NCBI GenBank assembly: GCA_027315185.1
Contig: DAHUYO010000006.1
Span: 395 to 64,394, forward strand
Direction of reading: 5' to 3'
DNA length: 64,000 nt
Source: Acidobacteriota bacterium
Lineage (GTDB): Bacteria; Acidobacteriota; Terriglobia; Terriglobales; SCQP01
Of this stretch, positions 25,364-44,035 are shown piece by piece. Numbering within the stretch: position 1 is the first letter of the stretch; each line of letters begins with the position of its first letter. The notes under the pieces are model-generated. The model ran no database searches. It saw only the letters and a list, made by a program, of their open reading frames with translations, and was not told where the DNA came from. Position numbers and translations under genes: made by a program.

Positions 25364-25375
25364 GAGCCGAAACCA

Positions 25376-27427
25376 ATGGCGCTGGGCACGGAGAAAACAA
25401 CGACGGATCTGGACCAAAAGGCGTCAGCGGTCTTCGCCGGCAAGGTGGTCCGCAAGGACTTGGTGCGCAAGGTCAAGGTCGGCGCCAACGTGCCCGTGTT
25501 CGTGCTCGAGTACCTGCTGGGCAAGTATTGCGCCACGGACGATCCCCAGGCGATCGAGGCCGGCCTGCGGGTGGTGAACTCCACCCTGGCGGAAAATTTC
25601 GTCCGGCCCGACGAGGCCAACAAGGCGCAGTCATTCGTTCGCGAGAAGGGAACCCATTCCCTGATTGACAAGGTCAAGGTCCGATACCTTTCCGACGACG
25701 ACAAATATTGGGCCGAGCTCGTGAATTTCGGCCACCGCTTCGTCCATATCCCCGACCAATACGTCCGCCAATTCGACCGCCTGCTCATGGGCGGGGTCTG
25801 GGCTCAGGTAAAACTCCGGCACCAGTACGACGATTCCGCCAGTGGCAAGAAGAGCCCATTCCGGATCGAAGAACTCCAGCCGATCCAGGTGGCCACCTTC
25901 AGCCTGGACGACTACCGCTCCGCCCGCGCCGCGTTCTCAACCGAGGAGTGGATTGACCTTTTGATCCGTTCCGTCGGCTTGGAGCCGACGGGCTTCGACC
26001 ACCGCCTCAAGCTCCTTCTGCTCACCCGTTTGCTCCCCCTCTGCGAGCCCAACTTCAACCTTGTCGAGCTGGGGCCGCGCGGCACCGGCAAGTCCTACGC
26101 CTATCAGGAGCTGAGCCCCTACGTCATCCTGCTCACCGGCGGCACCACCGTAGCCAATCTGTTTTACAACATGGCCACAAACCGGATGGGCCTGGTCGGA
26201 CTCTGGGACGCGGTGGCCTTCGACGAGGTCGCCGACCTGCAAAAGATGCCCAAGGAAGTCGTCACCACCTTGAAGACGTACTGTGAATCAGGGTCCTTCG
26301 CGCGGGGCAAGGAGTCCCTAACCGGCCACGCCTCAATCGCTCTATTCGGCAACACCAACCAGCCCGTCGAGGTGATGGTGCGCTCTTCCCACCTGTTCGT
26401 CCCGCTTCCCGACGCCATCCGGGAAGACCTCGCCTTTCTGGATCGCCTGCACTTCTACCTGCCCGGATGGGAAATACCCAAAATGCGGGTGGAATTCTTC
26501 ACCGACCACTACGGCTTCGTGGTGGACTACTTGGCCGAGGCGTTGCGCGAGCTGCGGCGGCACAACTTCACCGAGCTGCTCGACCGCCACTACGCGCTCG
26601 GCGCCCATTTGAACGCTCGCGACGTCAAGGCCGTACGAAAGACCGTGGCTGGCCTGGCCAAGCTGATTTACCCGAGCGGCGACGTGACCAAGGAGGGATT
26701 GGGCGAGATCGCCGAGCTGGCGCTGGAGGGCAGGCGCCGGGTGAAGGAGCAGCTCAAGAAGATGGGCTCGTTCGAATACCACCAGACCTCGTTTTCGCTG
26801 ATCGACGCCGAGACCAGGGAGGAGAAATATGTCGGTGTGCCGGAAGAGGGGGGAAGGAATCTAATCTCCGCGGATCCGCTCGCCCCAGGGTCGGTCTACA
26901 CCGCGGCCGTGGATTCCGAGGGCAAGGTGGGCCTTTACCGGCTGGAGGTGGGCTGCTCGCCGGGCACCGGAAAACTGAAAATCAGCGGCGCGGCCGATGG
27001 AGAGATGAAAGAGGCGATCCAGCGCGCGTTCGCCTACCTGCGCGGGCACAAGGTGGAGATGGGCATCGCGCAGGCCCTCGACACGACGGATTTCCACGCC
27101 GAGGCGATTGACCTGCTCGGCAACTACGTCCCCTGCGACGCCGGCGTCGCGCTCGTGGTCGCTGTCTATTCGGCCCTCAAGAAACAACCGGTCCTGCCCG
27201 CGCTCCTCGTGCTCGGCGACCTGAGCATCCAGGGCAACATCAAGCCTACCCACTCGCTCGCCGAGCCCCTACGCATCGCCATGGACAACGCCGCCCGCCG
27301 GGCGCTGATCCCGCTGGAGAACAAGCGCCATTTCCTTGAGGTCCCCGCCGATATCGTCGAGCGCGTGGATCCCATCTTCTTCGGCGACCCCATGACCGCA
27401 GCGCTCAAGGCCCTGGGAATGAACTGA
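25376..27427 (+). CDS. brxL: BREX Lon-like protease BrxL
   Basis: N-terminus 'FAGKVVRKDLVRKVKVGANVPVFVLEYLLGKYCATDDP'. AAA-like 'LGPRGTGKSY'. C-terminal Lon protease-like domain. Last gene of type 1 BREX. Confidence 0.9.
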   Translation: MALGTEKTTTDLDQKASAVFAGKVVRKDLVRKVKVGANVPVFVLEYLLGKYCATDDPQAIEAGLRVVNSTLAENFVRPDEANKAQSFVREKGTHSLIDKVKVRYLSDDDKYWAELVNFGHRFVHIPDQYVRQFDRLLMGGVWAQVKLRHQYDDSASGKKSPFRIEELQPIQVATFSLDDYRSARAAFSTEEWIDLLIRSVGLEPTGFDHRLKLLLLTRLLPLCEPNFNLVELGPRGTGKSYAYQELSPYVILLTGGTTVANLFYNMATNRMGLVGLWDAVAFDEVADLQKMPKEVVTTLKTYCESGSFARGKESLTGHASIALFGNTNQPVEVMVRSSHLFVPLPDAIREDLAFLDRLHFYLPGWEIPKMRVEFFTDHYGFVVDYLAEALRELRRHNFTELLDRHYALGAHLNARDVKAVRKTVAGLAKLIYPSGDVTKEGLGEIAELALEGRRRVKEQLKKMGSFEYHQTSFSLIDAETREEKYVGVPEEGGRNLISADPLAPGSVYTAAVDSEGKVGLYRLEVGCSPGTGKLKISGAADGEMKEAIQRAFAYLRGHKVEMGIAQALDTTDFHAEAIDLLGNYVPCDAGVALVVAVYSALKKQPVLPALLVLGDLSIQGNIKPTHSLAEPLRIAMDNAARRALIPLENKRHFLEVPADIVERVDPIFFGDPMTAALKALGMN

Positions 27428-27431
27428 CGCC

Positions 27432-27714
27432 GGGCTCGCGCGCCGATCCGCTCTGGGCGCCGGCGTCGTTTGTGTTTCCCGAGCTCCGCCCGGCTTTGGA
27501 GCATACCTCCCGCGACACCGCCGCCGCCGCGCTGGTCTCCAAATATCTGTGGCTGATGGTCGCCGCCACCGAGGACGACGCGGCCGCGTTTTTCGGCCCG
27601 CTATTTTCCCTCAGCCGCCTGCGCGGCCTGCTCGGCGCCTTGGTCGCCGCCGGCGCCCTGCTGCCCGCCTCCGTGGACGGCCGTCCCGGCTTCCAAGTCG
27701 CCCCCGGCGCGTAG
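27432..27714 (+). repeat. Right copy of the 283-bp direct repeat
   Basis: See 12637-12919. Confidence 0.9.
27432..27714 (+). pseudogene. Orphan 3' fragment (last ~93 codons) of the 12257-12919 gene
   Basis: Same reading frame and same stop as the full-length copy, but no 5' part. The 27472 'ATG' ORF in the track is just this fragment. Confidence 0.7.
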
Positions 27715-27806
27715 CGCCTCGGCCGCCGCGTTCAGCCTGCATTAACGCCGCCTCCCCTAGCTTTAAGGCTGGCGCAATTGCGCCGGCAATTGGAGGAATG
27801 GAAGCA

Positions 27807-28163
27807 ATGAAATCCCTAGTTTCGTCAACGTGCCGCGCCGCAGGGCTGATCCTGGGCGCGGGCCTGCTCATGTCGCTACCGCTGTTGGCCCAAAGCCAGA
27901 GCCAGCTCCGCGCGCAGGCCAAGATCGCCTACCGCCAGGCCCGCCACACCGCCCTGGTGAAGGAGCCCGGCCGCATCCTGAGCCATGAGTTGGAGCATGA
28001 GGACGGGCGCGTGATCTACACCTTCACCATCCACAACCGCCATGGCTACCATGAGGTCAACGTGGACGCCCGCACCGGCCGCTTGCTCGAGGACAGCCGC
28101 GAAAGCCGCGCCGAGGCGCTCGATGATATTCGCGAGTCCCGCCACGACCGTCAGCGGCACTAA
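27807..28163 (+). CDS. Small secreted PepSY-domain protein
   Basis: Signal peptide 'MKSLVSSTCRAAGLILGAGLLMSLPLLAQS'. PepSY-like 'AKIAYRQARHTALVKEPGRILSHELEHEDGRVIYTFTIHNRHGYHEVNVDARTGRLL'. GGAGG at 27792-27796 favours the ATG at 27807 over 27798. Confidence 0.65.
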   Translation: MKSLVSSTCRAAGLILGAGLLMSLPLLAQSQSQLRAQAKIAYRQARHTALVKEPGRILSHELEHEDGRVIYTFTIHNRHGYHEVNVDARTGRLLEDSRESRAEALDDIRESRHDRQRH

Positions 28164-28214
28164 TCGCCGCCAACCGGCGGGGCCCGAATGTCCTGCACGC
28201 CCCGCCGGTTTTCG

Positions 28215-28835
28215 TTACTTCCGCGCCAACTTCCGGCCGTTGCCGGCGCCGTGCTGCTGGGCCCACGCCAGCAGCGCGCGCGCCGCCTGGCCGCGATGGG
28301 AAAAGCGCGCCTTGACCTCCGCCGGCAGTTCGCCGAACGCGCAGCCCGCCGCCGGGGAATAAAACAGCGGATCGTAGCCGAACCCGTTGGCTCCCCGCTC
28401 GGCGCTCAGAATGGTTCCCTCGGCCCGCCCGGTGAACGTCGCCGCCACCCGTCCCTGCCGCGCCACCGCCAGCACGCAGACAAACGCTGCTTGCCGCCGC
28501 GCGCTGGGCACGCCCTCCAGCCGCCGCAGCAACAGCGCGTTATTGTCCTCGTCGCTGGCGCCCTCGCCGGCAAACCGCGCGGAATAGATCCCCGGCGCGC
28601 CATTCAGCGCCGCCACCTCCAACCCGGAATCATCCGCCAGTACCCACTCCTCGCCGCCCCAGGCGCGGCTGTACTCCGCGGCTTTTTTGCGCGCATTGGC
28701 GGCAAAGCTGTCCCCATCCTCGATCACCGGCGGCAACCGGGCGAAACCCGGCAGCAACGCCACCTCTAGGGCCGGGGCCATGCCGGCGAAGTCCCGCAGC
28801 TTGCCGGGATTGCCGGACGCCAGCCAGACCCTCAT
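28215..28835 (-). CDS. rdgB: Non-canonical purine NTP pyrophosphatase (RdgB/HAM1)
   Basis: '[16 protein letters not shown]...' and 'GFGYDPLF' motifs. 4-nt ATGA overlap with the rph stop. Confidence 0.9.
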
Positions 28836-29584
28836 CGTCCCGCCGCCAACGGCGGCGGCGCGCCCAACGCCTGTTCCAGCGCCCGGCGCTGCGCCGCGAT
28901 CAGCTCCGCAATGCCGCTCCTGGCCAGCGCGAACAGCGCCTGCGCTTGCGCCTCGTCAAAGGGCGCGCCCTCGGCCGTTCCCTGAATTTCCACGAACTTA
29001 CCGCCGCCGGTCAGCACGATGTTCATGTCCACTTCGGCGCGGGAGTCCTCGGTGTAGTTCAAATCCAGCACCGCCTCGCCCGCCACCACGCCCACGCTCA
29101 CCGCCGCCAAATAATCCTTTAGCGCGCTGGCCGCCAGCGTTTTGGACTGCCGCATCCGCTCCAGCGCCAGTGCCGCGGCGACGAATCCGCCGGTGATCGC
29201 CGCCGTGCGCGTGCCGCCGTCGGCTTGCAGCACGTCGCAGTCGAGAATCAGCGTCCGCTCCCCCATTCGGCCCAGGTCCACCACCGCCCGCAGCGCCCGG
29301 CCGATCAGGCGTTGAATCTCATGGCTGCGGCCCGAGACGCGCCCCTTGCTCACCTCCCGCGGCGTCCGCGTCAGCGTCGCCCGCGGCAGCATCGCATATT
29401 CCGCCGTCAGCCAGCCTTTGCCCTGGCCGCGCAGAAAGCCCGGCACCGTGTCCTCGATCGTCGCCGCGCACAGCACTCGGGTGTGGCCGACGGAGATTAG
29501 CGCCGATCCCTCGGCGGTGGGCAGAAAATCCGGTTCAATCGTCACCGGACGCAGTTGTTGCGGAGCACGCAGATCAGCACGCAT
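28832..29584 (-). CDS. rph: Ribonuclease PH
   Basis: 250 aa starting '[39 protein letters not shown]', with '...[12 protein letters not shown]'. The longer 484-aa ORF is an antisense-of-nuoI extension. Confidence 0.9.
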
Positions 29585-29674
29585 TCTTTTGAGTCTAGCC
29601 TGCCGCCCGCGCCTGCGGCGCCGCGCGGCGGAGGCGTTGCCCCCGAGCGCGCTTCGCCTGTCTATAATCAAGCT

Positions 29675-30133
29675 ATGGGCTCTCCGGTCAAGGACGCAAT
29701 CGCCATCGCCAAGGGTATGGGCGTAACCCTCAAGAACATGTTCCAGCCCGCGGTGACGGAGTTCTATCCCGACGAGCCGGTGCATTTCGAGGAGCGCTAT
29801 CGCGGCGTGCACGTATTGCAGCGCGATGAGAACGGTTTGGAAAAATGCGTCGCCTGCTTTCTCTGCGCCGCCGCCTGCCCCAGCAACTGCATTTACATCG
29901 AGGCCGCCGACAATACCGCCGAGCAGCGCATCAGCGGCGCCGAGCGCTACGCCTCGGTGTACAACATTGATTACAACCGCTGCATTTTCTGCGGCTACTG
30001 TGTGGAAGCCTGCCCCACCGACGCCATCACCCACGGCCATGGTTTTGAACTGGCCACCTACGACGCGAGCAATTTGATTTACCGCAAGGAGCAGCTGCTC
30101 GCCCCCGTGCCCGCCGCCGACCAGGCCCGATAG
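29675..30133 (+). CDS. nuoI: NADH-quinone oxidoreductase subunit I (2x[4Fe-4S] ferredoxin-type), stand-alone
   Basis: '[17 protein letters not shown]' and '[17 protein letters not shown]' cluster motifs. 'RGVHVL' NuoI-type N-terminus. Confidence 0.85.
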
Positions 30134-30349
30134 CCGCGGAGCCATTGCGTACCCGCCCGGCGGCTTCGCCGCCGCGTGGCCTGGGACAATCCGGCAGCAA
30201 GGGGCGCCGAACCGGGCCGTTTCCGACTGACGATCGCAGGGGATGGGCGTAGTCCCGTTTCGGCCTGGGTGGTAATGCCCTACCAAAGGTGCGAAACCGG
30301 AGCCAAGAGCGAACCCTGCTGCTCCCGCTGAAAACCTCCATCCCGACGA

Positions 30350-33300
30350 TTGGCGTCAGAAGCGGAAGTGAGCACCGTTTCCCTCCCGCTCCCGTCATCC
30401 ACGGTGGCGCAGACCGCCCCGCTGAGCTGGCAGCAAGAGCAGATTTGGCTGCATGGCCAATGGGCGGGCGCGGCGCCCATCTATCAAGAGACGGTAGCCA
30501 TTCGCCGCCAGGGCGGCTTTGCGGAAGCGCCCTTGCGTTCCATGCTCGCCGCTTGGGTGGCGCGCCATGACATTCTGCGCACGACATTCGGGGCCGGGGC
30601 CGATGCGCCCGTCCAGCGAGTCGCCGCCCAGGCCGAAACGGCGCCGCTGTCCATCGTGGACGTCGCCAGCGAAGCGGACGCCCTGGCGCTGGCGCAGGCC
30701 GATGCGTGCACCCCCATGGATTTGGCCAATGGTCCGTTGGTGCGCGCCCGCTGGACGCGGTGGCCCGAGGGGCAAGGCGTCTATTTAACGTTGCATCATT
30801 TGATTTTCGATGGCGCCACCGTGCGCCAAATCTGGCTGCCGGAGTGGGCCCTAGCCTATGGCGCCGGCAGTTCGGGAGCGGCGGCGCCCATGGCCGCGCC
30901 GGGCTACGCGGAGTACGCCCGCTGGCAGCGCCAGACTCCCGATGCCGCCGCCGAGCGGGCCGCCGAACATCGCGATTTCTGGCGCCGCCACTATCAGGGG
31001 GAGTGGCCGCGACTGGAGTTGGGCGGCGACCCCGCTGCGCCACGCTTCGCCGCCGTGAGCCGGCGCTTCAGATTGGAGCCCGCCTTGTGGGCGGCGCTGG
31101 CCCGGACCGCCTCCGCCTCCCGCGCCACGCCCTTCATGGTCCTGCTCGCCGCCTACGCGGCGCTGCTTCATCGCCTGGGCGGGCAGGAAACGGTCATCGT
31201 CGGCCTTCCCGCCGCCGCGCGGGGCGAGCGCCGCTGGGCGCGGCTGGCTGGGCCGATGGTCAATACTCTGGCCCTCCGCTTCGACTGCGGCGGTAATCCC
31301 AGCTTCAGTTCCTTCCTGCGCCAGGCCCGCGACAACCTGCTGGATGCGTTGGCGCATGAAGAGTATCCCTACACGTTGGCCCTGCGCGAGGCGCCGGGGG
31401 AGAGCACCGCCATTGGCTTGGAAGCGTATCTTTCCTTCCAGCCGCCGGATGAACATCCCGTTCCCGGTTGGGAACTCAGCCATCTGGAGGTGGAAACCAG
31501 CGTTAGCAAGTTTCCTCTTCACTTCGATATGGAAGCTGTCGCCGGCGGCGCCGAGGGCCGCTGCCATTGTCAGCGCTCGCGCGTGGACGCCGCCTTGGCT
31601 ACGGCGCTGCCGGAACATTGGCAGGTGCTGTTGGCAGGCGCCGGCGCCGATGCGGAGCAGCGCCTCGGCGCGCTGCCGCTGCTGTCGGCCGAGCAACGCC
31701 GCGCCGTGCTGGCCCTCAGCCGCGGCCCGGAACCCGTGCTGCCGGCCGGCTCGGTGGCCGAAGTGTTTGCCCGCCAGGCGGCGGCGACGCCAGAGGCGGT
31801 GGCCGTGGTGGCGTTGGAACCCGCAGCGGCGCCGGGGGCCGCGCCGCCCCGCCGCGTGCTCACCTACGCCGTGCTCCAGCACCAGGCCGAACAACTGGGG
31901 CGCGGCCTGCGCCGCGCCGGCGTCGCCCGCGGCGACGTGGTGGCCCTGGCGCTGCCGCGTTCGGCGGATACCATCGCCATCTTTTTGGCCCTGCTTGCCT
32001 GCGGCGTCGCTTATCTGCCGCTGGAACTCGATGATCCGCCGCAGCGGCGGCAGCGGCAGTGGCAAGCCGCCGGCGCGCGCTGGGTGATCGGACGCGGCGA
32101 GAGCGGCCTGCGCGCGTTGGCGATCGCGGAGCTGATGCGCCTTGGCGCCGCCCCCGAAGCCACGCCGCTTCCCGCTGTCCCGCCGGAAGCCATCGCCTAC
32201 ATCATGTGCACCTCGGGCTCGACCGGCGAGCAACTGCCCGTCCGCATTCCCCATCGCGGCATCCTGCGCTTGGTTGCCAACCCTGGCTATGCACATTTTG
32301 GCGACGACGAGACGTATTTGTTGCTGGCGCCGCTGGGTTTCGATGCCTCCACCTTTGAGATCTGGGCGCCGCTGCTGAACGGCGGCCGCTTGGTGATTCC
32401 TCCTCCCGGTCTGCCCACGGCCGGCGAGTTGGGCGATTGGATCCGCCAGGAAGAAGTGACGACGCTGTGGCTGACCACCGCGTTGTTCAACACCGTCATC
32501 GAGACCGCGCCCCAGGCGCTGGCGCCCCTGCGGCAGCTGCTCACCGGCGGCGAGGTGATGTCGTTGCGCCACATCCGCCAGGCGCGGCAGTCGCTGCCCG
32601 GCGTGGCCCTGTTCAATGCCTACGGGCCGACCGAAAACACCACGTTCACCACGATGCACCCGGTCGCCGGCACCTCCGGCCCCATGCCCCTCGGTCGTCC
32701 CATCGCCCATTCCCAAGCCTACGTCGTGGACCAGTATGGCGAACTGGCCGCCGCCGGCGCCGCCGGCGAGCTGTGGGTGGGGGGACTGGGCCTGGCGGCG
32801 GGTTACGTCGGCGGCCGAGCGGCGGAACGCTTCGTCACTCCCAGCTGGCTGGGCGGCGCACGGTTGTTCCGCAGCGGCGACCGCATGCGCTGGGAAAATG
32901 GCGAGTTGGCTTTTCTTGGCCGCCGCGATCAGCAGATCAAGCTGCGCGGCCTGCGCGTCGAGTTGTCCGCGCTGGAAGCGCATCTGGCCCGCCAGCCCGG
33001 CGTGCGCCAGGTGGCCGTGCTGGCCTCCGGCGCCGGCGCCGACCAGATGCTGACCGCGTTCGTCGCCGCGCACGACACCACGGCTGAGGTCTTGCGCTCC
33101 CGCCTCGCCGCCGAGCTGCCCGCCGCCACCATCCCCACTCGCTGGGTGATTCGCCCCGAGCTGCCTTGCCTGCCCAGCGGCAAACTGGATCGCCGCCGGC
33201 TGCCCGCCCTGGCCCCCGCGCTGCGGCGTGAGCCGCCCGCCGCGCACGCAATGTCGCTCCGGGAAGAGCAACTGCGCGCCATTTGGGAGCGTGCGTTGGG

Positions 33301-34336
33301 GCGCGACGGCATCGGCCGGGAGGATGACTTTTTCTCCTTGGGCGGGCACTCCCTGACCGCCCTGCGCATCTGCGCCGAAATGGAACGCCGCTTCGGGCGC
33401 CGTCTGCCGCTGGCCGCCCTGCCGGCGTACCGCACCATCGCCGCGCAAGCCGCCTGGCTGGAGCAAGGCGGCGCGGCGGCGCCGGTGGGCGAAAATCCAC
33501 GCGCCGTTCCGTTACAAACCGGCGATCCGGAGCGCCCTTGCATCTATTCGGTCGAGGCCGGAGACCGCTTCCTGCGCGTCGCCGAGCAGATGGGTCCCGA
33601 GCAGCCCTGGTGGAGCCTGCGCCTGGCCTCGCTGGCCGAGCTGCCGCACCCCAGTCCGATGGCCGCCATTGCCGCGTATCACATCCGCACGCTGCGGCAG
33701 CTCCAGCCAGAGGGGCCCTATTTCCTGACGGCATGGTGCCAAAACGGCGTCGTGGCGTTCGAGATGGCGCGGCAACTCGCCGCCGCCGGGCAGCATGTCG
33801 CGTGCTTGGCGTTGATTGATGCCGTCAGTCCCGCCTACTTGCGCCGCGTGGGTGGTTTTTGGTGGCCGATCTTTCGTAGCCGTTACGCCTGGCACCAGTG
33901 GCGCCTGCGGCGCCAAGGCGTCGGCGCGCTGACGGTCAATCGCGAGGCTGCGGCCTGGTCCAGCCCCGCCGGCGCCACCTGGCGCCGCTGGCTGTACCGC
34001 TGGCGGCGGCCCGCCGATCCGCCTCGCCTCGGCGAGCCCGCGGCGGTCGTGCAGCACGCTTTGCGCCGCTATCGCCCCGCCCCCTATCCCGGCCGCATCG
34101 TGCTGTTCCGGTCCCAGCACCAGATTCTTTCCTTCCGCGGCATGGGCCGGTTTCGCGATCCCAAGATGGGTTGGGAGGAATTGGCCGCCGGCGGATTGGA
34201 CATCCGCGAGATCATGGGCGGCCATACGGAAATTTTTGCGCCGCCGGGCGGCGCGGCCATGGCCCGCATCTTCGCCCACATTGTCACGGCCGCGGGCGTT
34301 CCGCTTCCCGTGGGCTGCGGGCAGGAATCATCATGA
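30350..34336 (+). CDS. Non-ribosomal peptide synthetase, single module C-A-T-TE
   Basis: C domain '[11 protein letters not shown]' (HHxxxDG). A-domain cores 'TSGSTGE', 'NAYGPTE', 'FRSGDRMRW', '[16 protein letters not shown]', '[10 protein letters not shown]'. PCP '[12 protein letters not shown]'. TE region '[20 protein letters not shown]...LIDA...GGHTEIF'. Confidence 0.9.
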
Positions 34337-36114
34337 TCCCAGACTGGTTGTCTTCCATCGCCGAACATGCGCGGCGGCGCCCTCAGGCCTTGGCGATTGT
34401 CGCCGCGGGGAAATCCCTCACCTACGAGGAGTTGGTGGCGCGTGCCCAGGGGTTGGCCGCGCGCTTGGCCGCAGCCGGCTTGGGACGCGAAAGCCTGGTG
34501 GCCCTGGCTCTGCCCAATGGCCTGGCCCGCGCCGCCGCCACGCTGGCGGTGCTCCAAGCCGGCGCCGCCTATCTACCGCTGAGTCCCAACGATCCTCCTG
34601 GACGCCTGGAGTCGGTGCTTTGGGATTCCGGCGCGGAACTGCTGCTGGCGCCGCCGGAACTGGCCCAGCACCTGGCGACCGGCCCTTGGTCCACATGGGT
34701 CATCCAGGGCCTAGAGGATCTGACCGATGGTGGTGGGCCCATTCCCCTGCCGACCGCGGCGCCGGAGGATCTCGGCTATGTGATCTATACCTCCGGTTCG
34801 ACCGGAGCGCCGAAGGGCGTGGAGATCGAGCGCTGCGCTCTGGCGCAGCTGATCGCCTGGCACCAGCGCGAATACCAGGTCACTCCCGCCGACCGCGCTT
34901 CGCTTCTGGTCCATCCCGCGTTTGACGCCGCCGTCTGGGAGTTGTGGCCCTATTGGGCGGCCGGCGCCAGCCTGCACGTAGCGCCGCCAGAGGCGCGGCT
35001 CGATCCGCGGGCACTGCGCGACTGGCTGCTGAGCGAGCGGATTACGATTGCAATCGCCGCCACCCCGCTGGCCGAACAGCTCATCACGCTGCCCTGGCCG
35101 GCGGAGACTCCGCTGCGGGCGTTGCTGACGGGCGGCGATCGGTTGCGCCGCCGCCCGCCCGCCGGTCTTCCATTTCCCCTGATCAATCATTACGGACCGA
35201 CGGAAGCCACCGTCGTCACCACCTATGGTTCGGTGCCGCCGGCGGGCGAGGGTCTGCCGACGATCGGCCGGCCGGTGCCCTATCTGGAGGTCCGCATCTG
35301 CGCTGGCGACTTGGCCCCCGTCGCCGCCGGCGACTCGGGGGAACTGTGCATCGCCGGCGCCGCGCTGGCCCGCGGCTACCGCCGCGACCCCCGGCTGACC
35401 GCGGAACGCTTCGTCATGGAATCGGCAACTGGGCGGCGGTGGTATCGCAGCGGCGATTGCGCCCGCTGGCGCGCGGACGGCGCCCTGGAGTTTCTGGGCC
35501 GGGCCGACCGGCAGGTGAAGATCCGGGGCTGGCGCATTGAGCCCGCCGAGATCGAGCGCCAGCTCATCGCCCATCCCGCCGTCGCGGCCGCCATCGTCGA
35601 AGTGGCGGCTCCCAGCCGTGGCGATCCTGCGGCGGATCCCCGCTTGGTCGCCTATTTGGCGGCTTGCGGCGCCGAGCGTCCAGGGCTGGCGGCGATGCGC
35701 GCGTTTCTCCGCTCCGAGCTGCCGGAACCGATGCTGCCCTCCGAGGTCCGCTGGCTGGCGGAGATGCCGCAGACGGCGCAAGGCAAATGGGATCGCGCCG
35801 CCCTGGCCACGGCGCCGGTGCTGGCCGCCGACGACGCCGCCGAGCCAGTGGCGGCGGCAGCCCTCAGCTCCACGGTCGCGGCGCTGGCTGGCATTCTCGC
35901 CGAAGCGCTGGGCGCCGACAGCGTCGGACCGGATCAAGATTTTTTCCTGCTCGGCGGACACTCCTTGCTGGGCGTGCAATTGATCGCCCGCGTGCGCGAG
36001 GAAATGGGCGTCGCCTTGCCCCTGCGCGCCATCTTCGACCATCCCACCGCCGCGCGCCTGGCGGAGGAAATTGACCGGCGTCGCGCGGGAGCCGCGCTGG
36101 AGGCGGCCCGCTAA
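34333..36114 (+). CDS. Free-standing adenylation-PCP (A-T) didomain protein
   Basis: ATGA overlap with the NRPS stop. 'YTSGSTGAPKGV', 'NHYGPTE', 'YRSGDCARW', 'GRADRQVKIRGWRIE', 'QGKWDRAAL'. PCP 'FFLLGGHSLLGV'. Confidence 0.9.
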   Translation: MIPDWLSSIAEHARRRPQALAIVAAGKSLTYEELVARAQGLAARLAAAGLGRESLVALALPNGLARAAATLAVLQAGAAYLPLSPNDPPGRLESVLWDSGAELLLAPPELAQHLATGPWSTWVIQGLEDLTDGGGPIPLPTAAPEDLGYVIYTSGSTGAPKGVEIERCALAQLIAWHQREYQVTPADRASLLVHPAFDAAVWELWPYWAAGASLHVAPPEARLDPRALRDWLLSERITIAIAATPLAEQLITLPWPAETPLRALLTGGDRLRRRPPAGLPFPLINHYGPTEATVVTTYGSVPPAGEGLPTIGRPVPYLEVRICAGDLAPVAAGDSGELCIAGAALARGYRRDPRLTAERFVMESATGRRWYRSGDCARWRADGALEFLGRADRQVKIRGWRIEPAEIERQLIAHPAVAAAIVEVAAPSRGDPAADPRLVAYLAACGAERPGLAAMRAFLRSELPEPMLPSEVRWLAEMPQTAQGKWDRAALATAPVLAADDAAEPVAAAALSSTVAALAGILAEALGADSVGPDQDFFLLGGHSLLGVQLIARVREEMGVALPLRAIFDHPTAARLAEEIDRRRAGAALEAAR

Positions 36115-37361
36115 TGGCCGCCGCCGATACCGCCGCCGAGCGGCTGACGCTGACCCGCCTGCTGGATCCCGCGGTGCTGGCAGATCCCTATCCGCTCTAC
36201 GCCCGGCTGCGGCGGGAAGCCCCGGTGCATTGGGACCCCTACCTCCATGCCTGGGTCGTGACCCGATACGACGACGTCATCACGGTGCTCCGGCAGTTTT
36301 CCGCCGCCCGGACGCCGAAGCCGGAGCAACTGGCGGCGATCGGCTTGGGCGAATTGGCGCCGGTGGCGGCGGTGCTGGTGCGGCAGATGCTGTTCCTCGA
36401 TCCGCCGGCCCACACCCGCATCCGCGCGCTCGCCGCCCAGGCCTTCACCCCTGGCCGCGTGGCGGCGATGCGCTTCCACATTCGCGACATCGTAGCCCGC
36501 CTGCTGGCGCCGCCCGCGGCCATTGGCCGCATCGAGGTGATCGCCGACCTGGCCGCGCCGCTGCCCAGCATCGTGACCGCGGAGATGCTCGGAGTGCCGG
36601 CGGAAGACCACGAGAGGCTGAAAGCCCTTTCGGCGGAGTTCGCCGGCATCCTCGGCAACTTCCAGCACAACCCCGACCGCGTGGCGCGCATGCTGCATGC
36701 GGTCGAGAGCCTGACGGCCTACTTCCGCCGCCACATCGCCGCCCTGCGCTCCGGGCGGGACCAGCGCAGCGGGCTGGTCGCCTCGTTGCTGGCAGCCGAG
36801 GTGGATGGCGACCGTCTGAGCGAGGAAGAGGTGGTCGCAAACGCCATCATCACCATGGTGGGCGGCCAGGAGACCACCACCAATTTGATCGGCAACGGGC
36901 TCTTGTCCCTGCTCCGCCATCCCGCCGAATGGGCCCGTCTGCGCTGCGACCCAAGCCTGGTTCCCACGGCGGTCGAGGAACTACTGCGCTACGAAAGTCC
37001 CAGTCAGCACACCGCCCGCTTGGCCCCCGCTGACCTAGAGCTAGGCGGGCGGCAGATCCGCCGCGGGCAAGCCGTCGTTGCGGTGATGGCCGCGGCCAAT
37101 CGCGATCCAGAGCAATTTCCCGATCCCGATCGTCTGGACCTCAACCGCCAGCCCAATCACCATGTCGCCTTTGGCTGGGGCGCGCATTTCTGTTTCGGCG
37201 CGGCGCTGGCGCGCATCGAGGGCCAGGAAGCACTGCGCGGCATGGTCGCCGCTTTCCCCCAGTTGGCGTTGACGGCAGAGCCGCTGGTCTGGCGGCCCAA
37301 CCTGGCGCTTCGCGGCCTGGAAGCCTTGCCGCTGGTGGCTGCCGGCAACGGCGCCCCCTAG
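36114..37361 (+). CDS. Cytochrome P450
   Basis: Heme-binding loop 'FGWGAHFCFGAALAR'. ExxR 'EELLRYESP'. Its ATG shares one nt with the A-T stop (TAATG). Confidence 0.9.
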   Translation: MAAADTAAERLTLTRLLDPAVLADPYPLYARLRREAPVHWDPYLHAWVVTRYDDVITVLRQFSAARTPKPEQLAAIGLGELAPVAAVLVRQMLFLDPPAHTRIRALAAQAFTPGRVAAMRFHIRDIVARLLAPPAAIGRIEVIADLAAPLPSIVTAEMLGVPAEDHERLKALSAEFAGILGNFQHNPDRVARMLHAVESLTAYFRRHIAALRSGRDQRSGLVASLLAAEVDGDRLSEEEVVANAIITMVGGQETTTNLIGNGLLSLLRHPAEWARLRCDPSLVPTAVEELLRYESPSQHTARLAPADLELGGRQIRRGQAVVAVMAAANRDPEQFPDPDRLDLNRQPNHHVAFGWGAHFCFGAALARIEGQEALRGMVAAFPQLALTAEPLVWRPNLALRGLEALPLVAAGNGAP

Positions 37362-37409
37362 CCGCGGCGGCAGCATGTCCGGCGCGGAGGCCGATGCTAG
37401 CATCGAGTT

Positions 37410-38243
37410 ATGGCGGATACGGACCTGCGGGAGGCGGTGCGGCAGCGCTACGGCGCGGCGGCGCAGCGGGTGAGCGGCGGTCAGAACAACGGTTGTTGCG
37501 GCGCAGCGCCCATTCAAGGCGGCTGCGACCCCATTACCTCCAATCTTTATGACGCCGAGCAGTTGGCGGGCATGCCGGAGGCGGCGGGACGGGCCTCGCT
37601 CGGTTGCGGCAACCCCACGGCGCTGGCGGATCTCCGGCCGGGCGAGGTAGTGCTGGACCTGGGTTCCGGCGGCGGCTTGGACGTGCTGTTGTCGGCGCGG
37701 CGAGTGGGGCCCGGGGGCAAAGCCTACGGTCTGGACATGACCGACGAGATGCTGGCGCTGGCGCGGGAGAATCAATCGCGCGCCGGCGTCGCCAACGCCG
37801 AGTTTCTCAAAGGTCACATCGAGGAAATTCCGCTGCCCGATGCCAGCGTGGACGTCATCGTTTCCAACTGCGTCGTCAATCTTGCCGCCGACAAGGATCA
37901 AGTGCTGCGCGAAGCTTTCCGCGTGCTGCGGCCCGGCGGTCGCTTGGCCATTAGCGACGTGGTCAGCCGCGGGGCCGCGCCCGTGGCCATCCGGCGCAGC
38001 TTGGAGTTATGGGTGGGCTGCATCGCCGGCGCATTGGAGGAAAGCGACTACCGCGCCAAACTGGCCGCCGCGGGATTCGCCGCGATCACGATCGAGCCCA
38101 CGCGCGTCTATCGGGTTGCGGACGCGCGCGAATTCCTGGCCGGGCAGGGCTGGGACGTGGACGCCATCGCCGCGCAAGTGGATGGGCTGTTTTTCAGCGC
38201 CTTTATTCGCGCGAGCAAGCCTGCAATGCCGCAAGGGGCCTAG
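37410..38243 (+). CDS. arsM: ArsM-like SAM-dependent methyltransferase
   Basis: SAM motif '[13 protein letters not shown]'. Cys pattern typical of arsenite methyltransferases ('GCCG', 'LGCGNP', 'SNCVVNL', 'WVGCIAGAL'). Confidence 0.75.
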
Positions 38244-38349
38244 GCCCGCAATGCCGGGCAGGGCGGCGGCGGGACGCGCGCGAAGGGGTGGGTGTCCGCC
38301 CAATCGGGGGAATTGACGCGCGCCGCCGCGGCGTTTCATTCTCGCGGCG

Positions 38350-39582
38350 ATGGCCAACGCCGCCCCATCCAGCCGCCCAACTCCGGCCGCCGCCTCCGAG
38401 ACGGTAGGCATGTGCGGCGTGGGCGGGCCAGAACGTGCGGCCAGCCGCGGAGCGGACGCAAAGGTCGCGGACGCATATGATCGGTGGCGCGCGCAGCTCG
38501 CGGGCAGTTGGCCCGAATTTCTCGCTCGCCGGCAAGCCGCGCTGTGCGCCGGCGGACCGGCGGTGGCCGCGGCGATCACGCACGCATTGCTGACGGCGGT
38601 GCTCGGCTGGCGCAGCGAGGAGATCTGCCGGCAGTATCGGCCGGCGGGGCCGGCACCCGCTGCCCCGGCACGGGCGGAACGGGGTAATGCCATGCGGGAG
38701 CCGGCGGGCGGGCGGACCGCCGAGCCGATCTGGGAACTCGCCGCTTCGCGGCTGCCCATGCCGAGTCCAGAGCCTGCGGAAACCTGGACCACGTTCCAGG
38801 TTGGCACTGGCAACGGGCGGGAGCGTTGCGTGCTGGCGATCTCCAGTCCGGGCGGGATACCGGTGCGGCAAACGGGGCGCTGTCATGCAATGCAGGCGGC
38901 AGCGCAGCGCGCCCGCGTGTTGGGTATCGGCCATGCCGGCGTTTGCGACGGCGGTTTGCTCTACCTCGAAGACGACGATGGCGGCCCGCGGCGCGCGCGG
39001 CTGCGGGTTTGGCTGGGGCAGACGAGCGCGCCGGGTGAACTATGGTGGGCGACGCCGATGGGACTGACGCAGCCGGTGACGCCAATGCAGGCGGCACTTG
39101 TCTTTACGCCGGCCGGCCCGGCGGTGGGGAGCGCCGTGGCGGACGGTTCCGGCGGCGTGGGATTGAAGGCAGGAGCACAACTGCATCCGCGGTTGCAACT
39201 GCCGGCCGCATGTTTCGCCTTTGTGGGCGATCCCATGCGGCCGACCACCTGGAAGCTGCCGTACCGCCGGGCGGATGGCCGCGCCGATCTGCGCCGGCTG
39301 ATCGCGGCGGCGCATCATGCGGCGGCTTCGCTGGCGACTCCGATCAGGGGCGGAGTGCCTTACGGCGAACTGCCGGTGGTTATCCACCGCCTGGCCGATG
39401 CCGCGCGCGAACTGGGCCAACTGTCGCCGGGCAATCGCCACCCCTCGGGCGTATTTCAGCGGCTGGCCGCCGCCGAGCAACGCTGTGGCGGGGTCTCGCC
39501 GCCGCGCATGGGGCCTGACGTGGCACTGCGATCCCCAGCGGTGGGTGCGGGCGGGCCAACGCGCCGAGGGGCCGGACAATGA
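38350..39582 (+). CDS. Hypothetical protein (weakly supported ORF; start uncertain)
   Basis: Longest sense ORF in an otherwise empty 1.3-kb gap. Protein-like stretches (e.g. 'CFAFVGDPMRPTTWKLPYRRADGRADLRRLIAAAHHA'). A hairpin plus T-run lies ~60 nt downstream. No recognisable domain. Confidence 0.3.
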   Translation: MANAAPSSRPTPAAASETVGMCGVGGPERAASRGADAKVADAYDRWRAQLAGSWPEFLARRQAALCAGGPAVAAAITHALLTAVLGWRSEEICRQYRPAGPAPAAPARAERGNAMREPAGGRTAEPIWELAASRLPMPSPEPAETWTTFQVGTGNGRERCVLAISSPGGIPVRQTGRCHAMQAAAQRARVLGIGHAGVCDGGLLYLEDDDGGPRRARLRVWLGQTSAPGELWWATPMGLTQPVTPMQAALVFTPAGPAVGSAVADGSGGVGLKAGAQLHPRLQLPAACFAFVGDPMRPTTWKLPYRRADGRADLRRLIAAAHHAAASLATPIRGGVPYGELPVVIHRLADAARELGQLSPGNRHPSGVFQRLAAAEQRCGGVSPPRMGPDVALRSPAVGAGGPTRRGAGQ

Positions 39583-39639
39583 TCGCCGGCCACGGGCCTT
39601 TTCATGTTGGTGCGGCCGGTTTGAGGGGAATCTTCGGCG

Positions 39640-39670
39640 AACGATGTAACGTCGCTCATCGTTTGTTTTC
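39640..39670 (+). terminator. Candidate intrinsic terminator: AACGATG-N10-CATCGTT followed by TGTTTTC, nested in an outer 9-bp stem (39630-38 / 39682-90)
   Basis: Inverted repeats read directly. The stem is short and only moderately GC-rich. Confidence 0.3.
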
Positions 39671-39926
39671 AGTTGGTTGCGGCCGAAGATGTTACGTTTT
39701 CGCCTTCCCGTATCGGGCCGCCTGTTGGCCGCCACGCAACTGGTTGCGCGCCAGCGGCCGCAGTAGCGATGGCTGGCGGCGACGCTATCGGGGCGAGGCA
39801 GCAGCGCGAAAGGACCCCGCCGCAGTGTTCGGCTTGACCGAAGCCGCTTAGATGCAGCGCTGGGGTAACGAGTTGTCCAGAAACCGGAATAGTAGGGGCC
39901 GGGGTGCGGTGCGGCGCTGGGGGTTG

Positions 39927-40169
39927 CTAGGCGGCAACGCGGGTCAGCAGGCGGCGGAGCAGGGAAGTGAGGGAGACGCCGGCCCAAACGGTTTCCATCA
40001 GCAGAAAACCCCATTGCTGCATGACCACGGCGGAGGCGGCGAGAATGGCGCTGCCGATGAAGTTTAGCAGCAGATAGGAATAGGCGTGCGGCTTCATGGT
40101 CCCGGTCTGGCTGAGCGCAAAGGCGATCAAGACCAAGATCGCGCCAGTGAGTTGAAAGGCTTCGTTCAT
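39927..40169 (-). CDS. Small (80 aa) three-TM membrane protein
   Basis: 'MNEAFQLTGAILVLIAFALSQTGTMKPHAYSYLLLNFIGSAILAASAVVMQQWGFLLMETVWAGVSLTSLL' has a clean hydrophobic periodicity. It resembles the CBU_0592-type small membrane protein family (from memory). Confidence 0.5.
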   Translation of the reverse strand: MNEAFQLTGAILVLIAFALSQTGTMKPHAYSYLLLNFIGSAILAASAVVMQQWGFLLMETVWAGVSLTSLLRRLLTRVAA

Positions 40170-40617
40170 GGTGGTGGCTCGGAGGGCGCGCCAGGACGAT
40201 TTTCGGCTCCGGACGCTGTTGCCTCAGTTTGCACCACAGCAGCGCAAGCGGCGCAGCCGCTCAGTTTCTTACGGTCCATCCATGGCAGGGCTGCGCCGTG
40301 GCGGTGGGGCGCGGCGTGGCCGCTGGTTTTCAGCGTGGGCGCGAAGGTACCGGCAACGCTTGGCTGGGCCAAGGGTGGTGGTAGGAGGGCCGACGGGATT
40401 GGCCGAGCCCAGCGGGGCGAGTGTGGCGCCTGCCCGGCGTCTTCACTCTGGCGAAATCAGGATCTCAGGCAATCGCCGGCAAATGGCGGCACCGCCGATC
40501 GGGCGGAATGCGCCCCCTTGAGATATTTGTAAACTGTTTATATTCAATGATTTAATCCGGTGTTCTGCGGGATCGCGGACGGGCGGCGAGAAGGCGAAAT
40601 AATTTTTGCAAAAATAA

Positions 40618-40647
40618 TTGACATCATCGCAGTCATGTTTTTATCAT
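40618..40647 (+). promoter_or_regulatory. Sigma70-type promoter candidate for hsp20: TTGACA-N18-TATCAT
   Basis: TTGACA at 40618-40623 and TATCAT at 40642-40647, in a conspicuously AT-rich island (about 40520-40680). GGAGG at 40673-77 precedes the ATG at 40684. Confidence 0.4.
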
Positions 40648-40683
40648 TCACTTGTAGTCAGATTATCACTTGGAGGAACCGCC

Positions 40684-41097
40684 ATGACCACTTTGCTCAA
40701 TCTGGATTTTCCCTTTACCGCTCTGGATGGACTGTTTGCTCCCCGGCTTCGCCCCGAGACGGCGACGATGGAATGGACGCCACGGACGGCGATCCACGAA
40801 GGCGAGCACGAGTTCACGCTGGAGTTGGATGTGCCCGGAGTGCAGCAACAAGACATCGAGTTGCAGGTGGAACAAAACCAGCTGACGATCCGCGGCGAGC
40901 GCAAGCCCTCGGCGGCGCTGGACAGCTACCGACGGGTCGAGCCCAGCTTTGGGACGTTCAGCCGCACATTCGCGCTGCCGGATTCGGTGAACAAGGACGC
41001 GATCTCGGCGAAGTTGGAAGCCGGCGTGCTGCGCGTCACGTTGCCGCAACGGGAGGAGACCAAGCCGCGGCGCATCGAAGTGAAGGCCAGCGCCTGA
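40684..41097 (+). CDS. Hsp20/alpha-crystallin small heat-shock protein
   Basis: 'WTPRTAIHEGEHEFTLELDVPGVQQQDIELQVEQNQLTIRGER...FGTFSRTFALPDSVNKDAISAKLEAGVLRVTLPQ' is a canonical ACD. Confidence 0.9.
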   Translation: MTTLLNLDFPFTALDGLFAPRLRPETATMEWTPRTAIHEGEHEFTLELDVPGVQQQDIELQVEQNQLTIRGERKPSAALDSYRRVEPSFGTFSRTFALPDSVNKDAISAKLEAGVLRVTLPQREETKPRRIEVKASA

Positions 41098-41374
41098 ACC
41101 GAGCTTGCGGAACCGGCGCCCGGCTAAACCATGTTTTCCGCACGGGCGCCATCGCCGGGACGAGAACAGCCCGGCCGGTTATGGTCACTCCATCATTCAC
41201 GGCGCGCCGGGGTGCGCGCGGGCGGCGGCAGGCAGCCACCTGCCGCCGTCATTTTTTGTGCGGGCAACCGCCTGCTCCGTTGCCGGGCCGGGGGCAAGCG
41301 ATGCAGGCGTTGCCGCGAGGACCTAGACTCAAGGCAGGGAGGCACGCTCCGCCGGCGCGGGGCGCGAACGCATA

Positions 41375-44035
41375 GTGCCGATTCGTTTTGACAAACTCAC
41401 GGTGAAATCGCAGGAAGCGCTGGAGGCGGCGCGGTCGCTGGCCGCTGAACACGGGCAAGCGGCCATCGAGCCGCTGCATCTGCTGCTGGCTTTGCTGGCC
41501 GACCGGGAAGGCGTGGTGCTGCCGCTGCTGGCGCGTTTGGGCGCCGACGTCCGCGCCATCACCGCCGACGCGGAGAAGGAACTGGCGCGGCGGCCGCAGG
41601 TGCAAGGCGCCAGCGTGGAGCGGGGGCTGAGCCCGGCGCTGGGGCAGGCGCTGGAGGAGGCGTTCCGCCAGGCGGACAAGTTCAAGGACGAATACGTCTC
41701 CGCCGAGCATCTTTTGCTGGGCATGCTGTCGCTGGAGCGGGATGCGGCGGCGGAGGTGCTGGCGCGGCACGGGGTGACCGCGGACCGGGTGTTGCAGGCG
41801 CTGATGGCGATTCGCGGCAGCCAGCGCATCACCGATCCCAACCCCGAGGGGAAGTTCCAGGCGCTGGAACGGTACGCCCGCGACCTGACGGAGGCGGCGC
41901 GGCAGAACAAGCTGGATCCGGTGATCGGCCGCGACGAGGAGATTCGGCGCGTGGTGCAGGTGCTGTCGCGGCGCACCAAGAACAACCCGGTGCTGATCGG
42001 CGAGCCGGGCGTAGGGAAGACCGCCATCGTGGAAGGGCTGGCGCGGCGCATCGTGGCCGGCGACGTGCCGGAGGCGCTGCGGTCGAAGCGGGTGGTGGCG
42101 CTGGACCTGGGGGCGCTGATCGCCGGAGCGAAGTACCGCGGCGAGTTCGAAGACCGGCTTAAGGCGGTGCTGAAGGAGATCGAGGACTCCGGCGGGCAGA
42201 TCATCCTGTTCATTGACGAACTGCACACGCTGGTGGGGGCGGGTGCGGCGGAAGGCTCGATGGACGCCTCCAACATGCTGAAGCCGGCGCTGGCGCGGGG
42301 CGAACTGCGGGCCATCGGCGCCACCACGCTGAACGAATACAAGAAGCACATCGAGAAAGACGCGGCTCTGGAGCGGCGCTTCCAGCCGGTGTTGGTGGGC
42401 GAGCCGACGGTGGAAGACGCCCTGGCGATTCTGCGCGGCTTGAAGGAACGCTACGAGATTCACCATGGCGTGCGCATTCAGGATGCGGCGCTGGTGGCGG
42501 CGGTGCGGCTGTCGCACCGCTACATCGCGGACCGGTTTCTGCCCGACAAGGCGATTGATCTGGTGGACGAAGCGGCGGCGGCGCTGCGCATGCAGCTGGA
42601 TTCGCGCCCGGCGGAGATCGAGGCGCTGGAGCGGCGGCTGACGCAGCTGGAGATCGAGCGGCAGGCGCTGGCCAAGGAGAAAGATCCCGGTGGGGTGGCC
42701 CGGCGGCAGCAGATCGAGGAGGAGATCGCCAATCTGCGGGAGCGCACCGCGGCGCTGACCGCGCGATGGACGGAGGAGAAGAGCCGGATCCAGCGGGTGC
42801 GGGAGGTGAAGCGGCAGCTGGACACGCTGCAAGGCGAGGAGGAGCAGGCGGAGCGGTCCGGCGACCTGAGCCGCGCGGCGGAGCTGCGCTATGGGCGCCG
42901 CGTGCAGCTGGAGCGGGAACTGGCCGCGGCGCAGCAGGCGCTGGAGGCGGCGGAGAGCGGGAAACGGCTGCTGCGGGAGGAAGTGGGCGAAGAGGATATC
43001 GCCCGCGTGGTGGCGAAATGGACCGGCATTCCGGTGAGCAAGATGCTGGAGAGCGAGACGCAAAAGCTGGTGGCGATGGAGGAGCGTCTGCACCATCGCG
43101 TGGTAGGCCAGAACGCCGCCGTTACCAGCGTCAGCGACGCGATTCGCCGCTCCCGCGCCGGGCTGGGCGACCCGCGCCGCCCAATCGGGTCGTTTCTGTT
43201 TCTGGGCCCCACCGGCGTGGGCAAAACGGAGCTGGCGCGCGCGCTGGCGGAGTTTTTGTTCGACGACGAGCACGCCATGATCCGGCTGGACATGAGCGAA
43301 TACATGGAGAAGCATTCGGTCGCCCGGCTGATCGGCGCGCCGCCGGGATATGTCGGCTATGAGGAGGGCGGGCAGCTGACGGAGCGGGTGCGGCGGCGGC
43401 CCTATTCCGTGGTGCTGCTGGATGAGGTGGAGAAGGCGCACGCGGACGTGTTCCACGTCCTGTTGCAGGTGCTCGACGACGGGCGGCTGACCGACGGTCA
43501 GGGGCGGACGGTGGACTTCCGCAACACCGTGGTGATCATGACCTCCAACCTGGGCAGCCAGGCGATCCGCAGCGGCGATTTCGCCAGCGCCGCGGCCGAG
43601 GCGGAGCTGCGGCGGCGCTTGCAGGAGATGCTGCGCAGCCATTTCCGGCCGGAGTTCTTGAACCGGATTGACGACATCATCATCTTCCATCCGCTGGGCC
43701 GGGAGCAGATCGAGGTGATCATTGACCTGCAACTGGAGCACCTGCGCGGGCTGCTGGCGGCGCGGGACATTCAGTTGGTGCTGGCGCCGTCGGCGCGCGA
43801 GCTGATCCTGGCGCAGGGCTACGACCCGGAATACGGGGCACGGCCGTTGAAGCGGGCGTTGCAGCGGCTGGTGCAAAATCCCTTGGCGTCGGCGCTGCTG
43901 AAAGGCGACATCCGGCCGGGCAGCGTGGTCGAGGCGGCAGCGGGCGCGAGCGGCGAACTGGCGTTCCGGACGGCGGCGGCGCAGGAAGCAGCCCCTGCGG
44001 CGGAAGGGGGCAAGCGCGCGGCGCGGCCGAAGTAG
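41375..44035 (+). CDS. clpB: ATP-dependent chaperone/disaggregase ClpB
   Basis: GTG start. Clp_N '[15 protein letters not shown]'. Two AAA+ modules with Walker A 'GEPGVGKT' and 'GPTGVGKT'. Long coiled-coil M-domain between them. Confidence 0.95.

Follow-up and report, generated by a model that had tools for sequence, protein, structure and literature searches.

A three-gene nonribosomal peptide synthetase operon of a Terriglobales genome is a permuted-order member, of predicted leucine/valine type, of a widespread A-T/P450 cassette family

Introduction

Cassettes in which a free-standing adenylation-thiolation (A-T) protein works together with a cytochrome P450 are known from nonribosomal peptide synthetase (NRPS) systems, and include NovH/NovI, NikP1/NikQ and BpsD/OxyD. 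The oxidation of a tethered leucine by a P450 has precedents in LctB/LctD of the lactacystin system (PMC11730586) and in PlyR of the polyoxypeptin system (PMC3943440). The present analysis concerns a locus in a 64-kb stretch of DNA (64,000 nucleotides of contig DAHUYO010000006.1, referred to below as the window; GC content of 65–71%) from a metagenome-assembled genome (MAG) of the Terriglobales, Acidobacteriota. In this locus a single-module NRPS with condensation, adenylation, thiolation and thioesterase domains (C-A-T-TE), a stand-alone A-T didomain protein and a P450 are encoded by a real three-gene operon, which was confirmed. The operon is a permuted-order member, of predicted leucine/valine type, of a widespread cassette family, and with moderate confidence we consider it a minimal split two-module NRPS that works with one oxygenase to make a small oxidised leucine-valine dipeptide.

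The arrangement resembles that of LctB/LctD and PlyR in that a free-standing A-T of leucine type is followed by a translationally coupled P450, with the residue predicted to be handed to an NRPS. It differs from the A-T plus P450 cassettes as a group in that the window P450 is not near the solved aminoacyl-carrier hydroxylases and belongs to its own highly conserved, multi-phylum subfamily. Further differences are that an MbtH-like gene was not found in the source genome and that no dedicated release thioesterase is linked to the pair.

The NRPS gene can be compared with AB3403 of Acinetobacter baumannii (4ZXH/4ZXI), which has the same C-A-T-TE architecture, a Cys nucleophile in its thioesterase (GWCFGG, versus AWCQNG in the window) and a donor supplied in trans. 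The AB3403 donor is a free-standing carrier, and the pathway is uncharacterised. In contrast to the window, AB3403 has no A-T and P450 pair, and its gene presumably sits among acyl-CoA-type genes; glycine is present in its A-domain crystal. Between the two proteins the C domains are only distantly related, with an alignment that covers part of the domain at an E value of 2.7e-12. Two further synthetases, ObiF1 (obafluorin) and SulM (sulfazecin), likewise have a C-A-T-TE, to which the donor comes in trans in the case of ObiF1, and their thioesterases have Cys where Ser is usual. However, ObiF1 and SulM act with a β-hydroxy or β-amino group on the thioesterase-proximal residue, whereas the residue predicted at that position in the window is valine.

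The logic of the operon, with a trans-acting A-T, a P450 working on the tethered residue and a terminating C-A-T-TE, is that of textbook NRPS enzymology, and the cassette family is uncharacterised in the literature searched. The original prediction for this locus had not recognised the cluster as any characterised pathway. This stands in so far as no characterised equivalent was found in literature searches on both specificity codes, on Acidobacteria NRPS/P450 clusters, and on C-A-T-TE combined with P450 and leucine, but the cluster is not isolated, since it is a member of a widespread family. In uncultured soil phyla, which include Acidobacteriota, Methylomirabilota, Verrucomicrobiota, Chloroflexota and Eremiobacterota, the family ranks with the more widespread of the small NRPS cassettes.

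Gene layout and state of the operon

Four open reading frames are present on the plus strand of the locus. The ATG of the A-T gene overlaps the TGA of the C-A-T-TE gene as ATGA, the start of the P450 gene overlaps the stop of the A-T gene as TAATG, and a gap of 48 nucleotides separates the end of the P450 gene from a methyltransferase gene. This succession of four co-directional genes, which had been described earlier, was confirmed by the open reading frames, by Pfam matches and by reading of the junctions. The three genes of the operon and the domains of the first are as follows:

30350–34336, plus strand: NRPS C-A-T-TE, 1328 amino acids (Pfam Condensation, AMP-binding, PP-binding and Thioesterase)
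about 30407–31705, plus strand: C domain of the C-A-T-TE protein
30794–30814, plus strand: catalytic motif HHLIFDG of the C domain, residues 149–155
about 31766–33184, plus strand: A domain of the C-A-T-TE protein
about 33266–33460, plus strand: T domain of the C-A-T-TE protein
about 33527–34309, plus strand: TE domain of the C-A-T-TE protein
34333–36114, plus strand: stand-alone A-T didomain protein, 593 amino acids (AMP-binding and PP-binding)
36114–37361, plus strand: cytochrome P450, 415 amino acids

The GTG at 30368 is the start used by the C-A-T-TE orthologues, and it may be the true start of the gene. An Rfam scan of positions 29000–41000 returned no regulatory RNA, and promoter and terminator scans gave matches at chance level.

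The same operon recurs, with 55–94% identity, on metagenome contigs and in each of the other three species genomes that represent the genus, and the core that is always present in the genus consists of the C-A-T-TE, A-T and P450 genes. The Condensation domain (Pfam E value of 2e-58) has the HHxxxDG motif, both T domains have the carrier motif GGHSL, the carrier serine of the A-T protein is Ser544 (35962–35964), and the source genome has one phosphopantetheinyl transferase (PPTase) match (PF01648), on contig C199. Every NRPS domain is under purifying selection when compared with four orthologues, with ratios of nonsynonymous to synonymous substitution rates (dN/dS) of 0.06–0.65 by pair and of 0.06–0.27 against the two closest. 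The catalytic motifs are intact, and the observation of the operon is confirmed.

Supply of the donor to the C domain

Among solved structures, the C domain is nearest to Txo2, Txo1 and TycC6; the starter C domain of CDA has a far lower score, and neither SrfA-C nor EntF is among the structures listed as matches. Judged by sequence, this points to a C domain that accepts an L-aminoacyl or peptidyl donor, and not an acyl or aryl donor. A starter (lipo-initiation) C domain was considered and rejected on the same ranking against solved structures.

The MAG that contains the window measures 3.77 Mb, is 86% complete, and has one C domain. A single C domain is likewise present in the congeners G007 (97% complete), G039 and G019, where it is split over two contig ends. 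The earlier claim that a synthetase starting with a C domain needs a donor from upstream, which the A-T protein would supply, is supported by an intact C domain that, by its ranking, accepts L-aminoacyl donors and is the only one in each of four genus genomes. The claim that the A-T protein is the only candidate donor holds in part. It is the best reading, but the protein is not the sole carrier, since the genome has 11 PP-binding matches, which include an unlinked T-TE locus. Despite these other carriers, the comparative evidence from the family, described below, ties the A-T protein to the C-A-T-TE protein as its predicted donor. The A-T/P450/C-A-T-TE set recurs across phyla, and together with the single C domain this is best read as a system in which the free-standing A-T supplies the donor for a dipeptidyl product, as had been proposed.

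Since the genome has a single C domain, no other NRPS partner is needed, and the three-gene version of about 7 kb is one of the smallest self-contained members of the family. Its small, self-contained size makes it a convenient construct for studying the action of the P450 on leucine and the function of the Cys-type thioesterases of this clade.

The second, unlinked carrier-protein locus of the genome (L118, contig C111, positions 22000–36000) has no C domain. Its genes encode a flavin monooxygenase, an ATP-grasp protein, a GNAT/FemAB-like protein, a T-TE didomain protein with a Cys nucleophile (GYCGGG), an asparagine-synthase-like protein, a PLP enzyme of the Cys/Met family, a stand-alone A domain and a 2-hydroxyacid dehydrogenase.

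The wider A-T/P450 cassette family

The database relatives of the window P450 number in the thousands, and the best 120 all have at least 65% identity to it. In a scan that used one genome per species, at least 565 species genomes had a relative of the P450, and the best 80 loci, with P450 identities of 62–70%, were analysed. The family spans at least seven phyla. Sources within the Acidobacteriota include Blastocatellia, Pyrinomonadaceae, Terriglobales, Angelobacter, Sulfotelmatobacter and others, while sources outside it include Methylomirabilota/Rokubacteria, Chloroflexota, Verrucomicrobiota, Rhodospirillales, an actinobacterial MAG and Eremiobacterota.

The link between the A-T and P450 genes is nearly invariant. 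Of the loci, 76 have enough sequence upstream of the P450 to be judged by a strict adjacency test, and in 72 of these the P450 start coincides with the end of a gene for a stand-alone A(-T) protein; two further loci are P450 fusions that the strict test misjudged and in which the A-T gene does lie upstream. With the TAATG overlap of the window, the adjacency and co-inheritance seen in cassettes of the NovH/NovI type are thus found here as well. The code DAWFLGNVV was read in 73 of the 82 stand-alone A domains of the related loci. A protein with a C domain is encoded within 8 kb in 71 of the 80 loci, and a complete C-A-T-TE within the same distance in 36. Among these 36 complete cases, the C-A-T-TE gene follows the P450 gene in 29 and lies on the opposite strand in 3; it comes first, before the A-T gene as in the window, in only 4, one of which is a congener.

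The partner modules are more variable. Their specificities include Gly-like, Val-like, Ser-like and other codes; Val-type partners also occur in Methylomirabilota loci, and one actinobacterial MAG has both the gene order of the window and the identical DAFWLGATF code. The median identity to the window is 66% for the P450, 45% for the A-T protein and 31% for the partner NRPS. Because the identities are unequal and the partner codes vary, the predicted conserved unit of the family is the leucine-type A-T with the P450, and the acceptor module is predicted to be interchangeable. The window operon shares with the family its three core genes, leucine-type and valine-type codes, a Cys thioesterase and a P450 within the range of identities given above. 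It differs from the family in its permuted gene order, an Asn-to-His change in the leucine code, a degenerate P-loop in the partner module, and the absence of a linked PPTase and of an exopolysaccharide (EPS) context.

Several related loci depart from the common pattern. Four (L045, L077, L088 and L090) have the A-T, P450 and PPTase genes and no C domain within 8 kb. In L087 and L093 the gene for the leucine-type A-T is followed directly by one in which the P450 forms the N-terminal part of an in-frame fusion with an A-T-TE module. Six loci (L050, L069, L071, L081, L084 and L085) have a C-T-TE protein without an A domain, in which no canonical HHxxxDG motif was found and Cys serves as nucleophile of the TE; these sequences suggest that the leucine/P450 unit may be put to a different use there.

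Two kinds of neighbouring genes recur. An Sfp-type PPTase gene is present in 21 of the 80 loci, and EPS-type neighbours within 8 kb, including a priming sugar transferase and Wza, are present in 25; unmatched open reading frames at the EPS-type loci read as Wzc-, Wzx- and Wzz-like, with no Pfam match. Neither an Sfp-type PPTase gene nor an EPS-type gene was found in the 64-kb window. In another Terriglobales genome, one locus (L016, G122:C2:4034000-4053999) has two tandem C-A-T-TE genes with Cys thioesterases and an upstream A-T gene within an EPS-type locus that also encodes a GT4 glycosyltransferase, Wza, Wzz, a priming sugar transferase and a GDSL lipase.

Specificity codes and the P-loop of the in-module A domain

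Specificity codes were read off a MAFFT alignment, and they depend on the GrsA segment that served as its anchor. On this reading the free-standing protein, which consists of AMP-binding and PP-binding domains only and has no C domain, has the Leu-like code DAWILGHVV. The corresponding code in three orthologues is DAWFLGHVV, one residue from DAWFLGNVV, which we take to be the canonical leucine code. The A domain within the C-A-T-TE protein has the Val-like code DAFWLGATF, and a Val-like code is kept in the clade. In the orthologue with 55% identity the in-module code is DAFWLGGTF, which is listed as a valine code (PMC9113097).

The in-module A domain has one irregular motif:

32213–32242, plus strand: atypical A3 P-loop of the in-module A domain, in which the PKG of the usual SGSTGxPKGV is missing

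At the PKG site the sequence is EQLP in the window and EPQA(V) or EPRA(V) in the orthologues, so that PKG is gone in all four. Among the other partner modules scanned, a single one (VAKG) departs from xP(K/R)G. An inactive in-module A domain would mean that the leucine-type A-T protein loads both carriers and that the product is an oxidised Leu-Leu; the loss of PKG and the existence of six related loci with a C-T-TE that has no A domain are in line with this, yet we regard it as highly improbable. The A core has a dN/dS of 0.16–0.33, similar to that of the other domains, which argues that the domain still works. The conserved Val-like code speaks for the same reading, as do the intact A5 (NAYGPTE), A6 (GELWV), A8 and A10 (Lys) motifs.

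The P450 and its substrate

The P450 is the only one in the source genome. Its haem ligand is Cys360 (37191–37193), and the haem loop (FGWGAHFCFG) and the acid-alcohol pair in GGQETT are intact. By these motifs it is predicted to be a normal oxygen-activating P450. Its top matches in the PDB are CYP107P2, BioI, CYP125, CYP109 and PikC. By both sequence and predicted fold, the closest solved relatives are CYP107P2 and BioI with acyl-acyl carrier protein, at 36–37% identity. The fold ranking was obtained with an AlphaFold model of moderate confidence (pLDDT of 74) and added nothing to the ranking by sequence. The best match, PDB 8YHN, is the orphan CYP107P2 of Streptomyces and gives no functional lead.

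If the P450 were a late tailoring enzyme comparable to CYP121 or CypX, it would act on the released dipeptide or on cyclo(Leu-Val) instead of on tethered leucine. The P450 does have a match to TIGR04538, the family of P450s associated with cyclodipeptide synthases, but at 169 bits it is below the cut-off of 500, and most of the closest solved relatives act on free substrates. This role is distinctly unlikely in view of the genes to which the P450 is linked. Across the family it accompanies the A-T gene almost invariably, and not the C-A-T-TE gene. It is found with the A-T and PPTase genes in the four loci that have no C domain within 8 kb, and in two loci it is fused directly to an NRPS module. 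In addition, the carrier-dependent BioI is one of its two closest structures. Action on a carrier-bound substrate is therefore well supported as a prediction by the gene linkage, the fusions and the resemblance to BioI.

The thioesterase and release of the product

The catalytic residues of the TE domain are located as follows:

33737–33739, plus strand: nucleophile codon TGC, Cys1130 in LTAWCQNG
33818–33820, plus strand: triad partner Asp1157
34223–34225, plus strand: triad partner His1292, in GGHTE

The triad is Cys-Asp-His and not Ser-Asp-His, and the TE is thus a Cys variant, with the Asp at +27 from the Cys. The nucleophile Cys is conserved across all C-A-T-TE orthologues, and the best solved match to the TE is AB3403 (4ZXH), which also has a Cys. 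Across the family, about 32 TE domains have a Ser nucleophile and about 21 have a Cys. Cys thioesterases are the norm among the single-module NRPSs of the Terriglobales, and the unlinked T-TE protein of the source genome also has a Cys nucleophile; for these reasons the Cys nucleophile is best read as a trait of the clade and not as a peculiarity of this operon.

ObiF and SulM are the characterised Cys thioesterases (PMC10510592). A similar role for the TE of the window would be the closure of a strained ring, a β-lactone or β-lactam, with the use of a hydroxyl group installed by the P450. The nucleophile Cys is kept in all orthologues, as this role would have it, and the P450 of the operon could supply the β-hydroxyl. 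However, ring closure of this kind is most unlikely here. The prediction places the oxidised residue at the N-terminal donor position and, next to the TE, valine, which has no β-heteroatom. The TE has no detectable similarity to the ObiF1 TE: in a search with the TE alone, ObiF1 (6N8E) was absent at E values up to 1, and it aligned only to residues 469–1039, the A-T region. Moreover, Cys thioesterases are frequent in the lineage whatever the context, and both nucleophiles occur in the family.

The TE might also transfer the (oxidised Leu)-Val acyl group to an exopolysaccharide sugar or a lipid, in which case the operon would decorate a cell-surface polymer. A Cys acyl-enzyme is suited to transfer chemistry, EPS-type genes are close neighbours in 25 of the 80 loci, and the related pair of C-A-T-TE genes with Cys thioesterases in another Terriglobales genome lies inside an EPS-type locus. 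Even so, decoration of a polymer is unlikely for the window operon. The remaining 55 loci have no EPS neighbour, no EPS-type gene was found in the window, and the operon is flanked in the genus by rph, rdgB, a NuoI-like gene and hsp20-clpB.

Proposed mechanism

The preferred reading remains the one in which the operon makes a small oxidised leucine-valine dipeptide. In the first step, the stand-alone A-T protein would activate leucine, or a close aliphatic analogue, and tether the residue to its own carrier. The translationally coupled P450 would then oxidise the tethered residue; by analogy, hydroxylation of the side chain is most likely, possibly at the β-carbon. The C domain would take the oxidised leucyl thioester as its donor and join it to the valine loaded by the in-module A domain. 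Finally, the Cys-Asp-His TE would off-load the oxidised Leu-Val chain, which might be hydrolysed, cyclised or passed to another nucleophile. We infer the substrate and regiochemistry of the P450, the roles of the two NRPS proteins as donor and acceptor, and the way in which the product is released.

A number of observations weigh against this reading. No product is described for any member of the family in the literature searched, and the source genome is incomplete, at 86%. In the A-T proteins of the genus, His replaces the Asn of leucine codes, and a code of the DAWILGHVV type was not found in the literature searched. The P-loop without PKG could impair adenylation by the in-module A domain. 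Neither the 60 best sequence matches nor the 50 best fold matches of the P450 in the PDB include OxyD or P450sky, so that β-hydroxylation is proposed purely by analogy. Lastly, no gene for a ferredoxin, a reductase partner or an MbtH-like protein is linked to the operon.

A more speculative extension, which we put forward tentatively, is that the unusually conserved leucine A-T/P450 pair yields an oxidised leucine other than simple β-hydroxyleucine. In this genus the pair would work with the valine module, with its atypical P-loop, and with the Cys thioesterase, and the resulting dipeptide, small and either cyclic or reactive, might be a new scaffold. Such a compound might have a conserved role in the ecology of uncultured soil bacteria, for example as an antimetabolite, as a signal or for the decoration of surfaces.

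Flanking genes and limits of the cluster

Two genes that border the operon could be mistaken for parts of it:

37410–38243, plus strand: methyltransferase ArsM, 277 amino acids (class I methyltransferase)
29675–30133: NuoI-like gene for a 2x[4Fe-4S] protein, 185 bits against the NuoI cut-off of 163

The methyltransferase had been counted as a possible fourth member of the cluster, and this assignment is not supported. It scores 355.5 bits on NCBIfam NF008823, for which the cut-off is 263, and its best solved relatives are ArsM arsenite methyltransferases. Its Cys motifs GCGNP, SNCVVNL and GCIAGAL align with GCGNP, SNCVINL and GECLAGAL of solved ArsM, which we take to be the As(III)-binding cysteines. 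By these features it is predicted to be a bona fide ArsM arsenite methyltransferase. In G019, a species of the same genus, the P450 gene is directly followed by an hsp20-like gene, which in the window lies at 40560–41375 in front of clpB; ArsM, an open reading frame of 410 amino acids and a small open reading frame are all missing. ArsM is probably a neighbouring gene that does not belong to the NRPS cluster, given that one species of the genus lacks it at this place.

Recruitment of the ArsM-like enzyme to methylate the peptide, which would make a four-gene cluster, is nonetheless compatible with its location on the same strand, 48 nucleotides after the P450 gene, and with the fact that this arrangement is kept in the two closest orthologous loci. 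We judge it very unlikely. The protein lies above the curated ArsM cut-off and keeps all of the arsenic-binding cysteines, the gene is missing from G019 together with both open reading frames that follow it, and the gene families that recur as neighbours at the 80 related loci include no ArsM homologue. As a candidate tailoring enzyme, ArsM was rejected on its NF008823 score, its ArsM relatives and its absence in G019.

The 410-amino-acid open reading frame (38350–39582) has no family match, is of low complexity and is absent from G019. With ArsM and the small open reading frame it occupies one block, 37410–40532, that is present in the source genome and in G007. Since the block is missing as a whole in G019, these three genes are best read from the sequences as one separate insertion or deletion unit. 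In a comparison with empty sites in sister genera no clean boundary of an insertion could be seen, and synteny stops after the NuoI-like gene.

On the other side of the operon, the NuoI-like gene was considered as the source of a ferredoxin for the P450 and was rejected on the basis of its NuoI score and its status as a core gene in 28 of 28 genomes of the taxonomic family, most of which do not have the operon. It is predicted not to be part of the NRPS system. The gene is solitary, located beside rph and rdgB and away from any nuo operon, and it is conserved with 82–99% identity in all 28 of these genomes.

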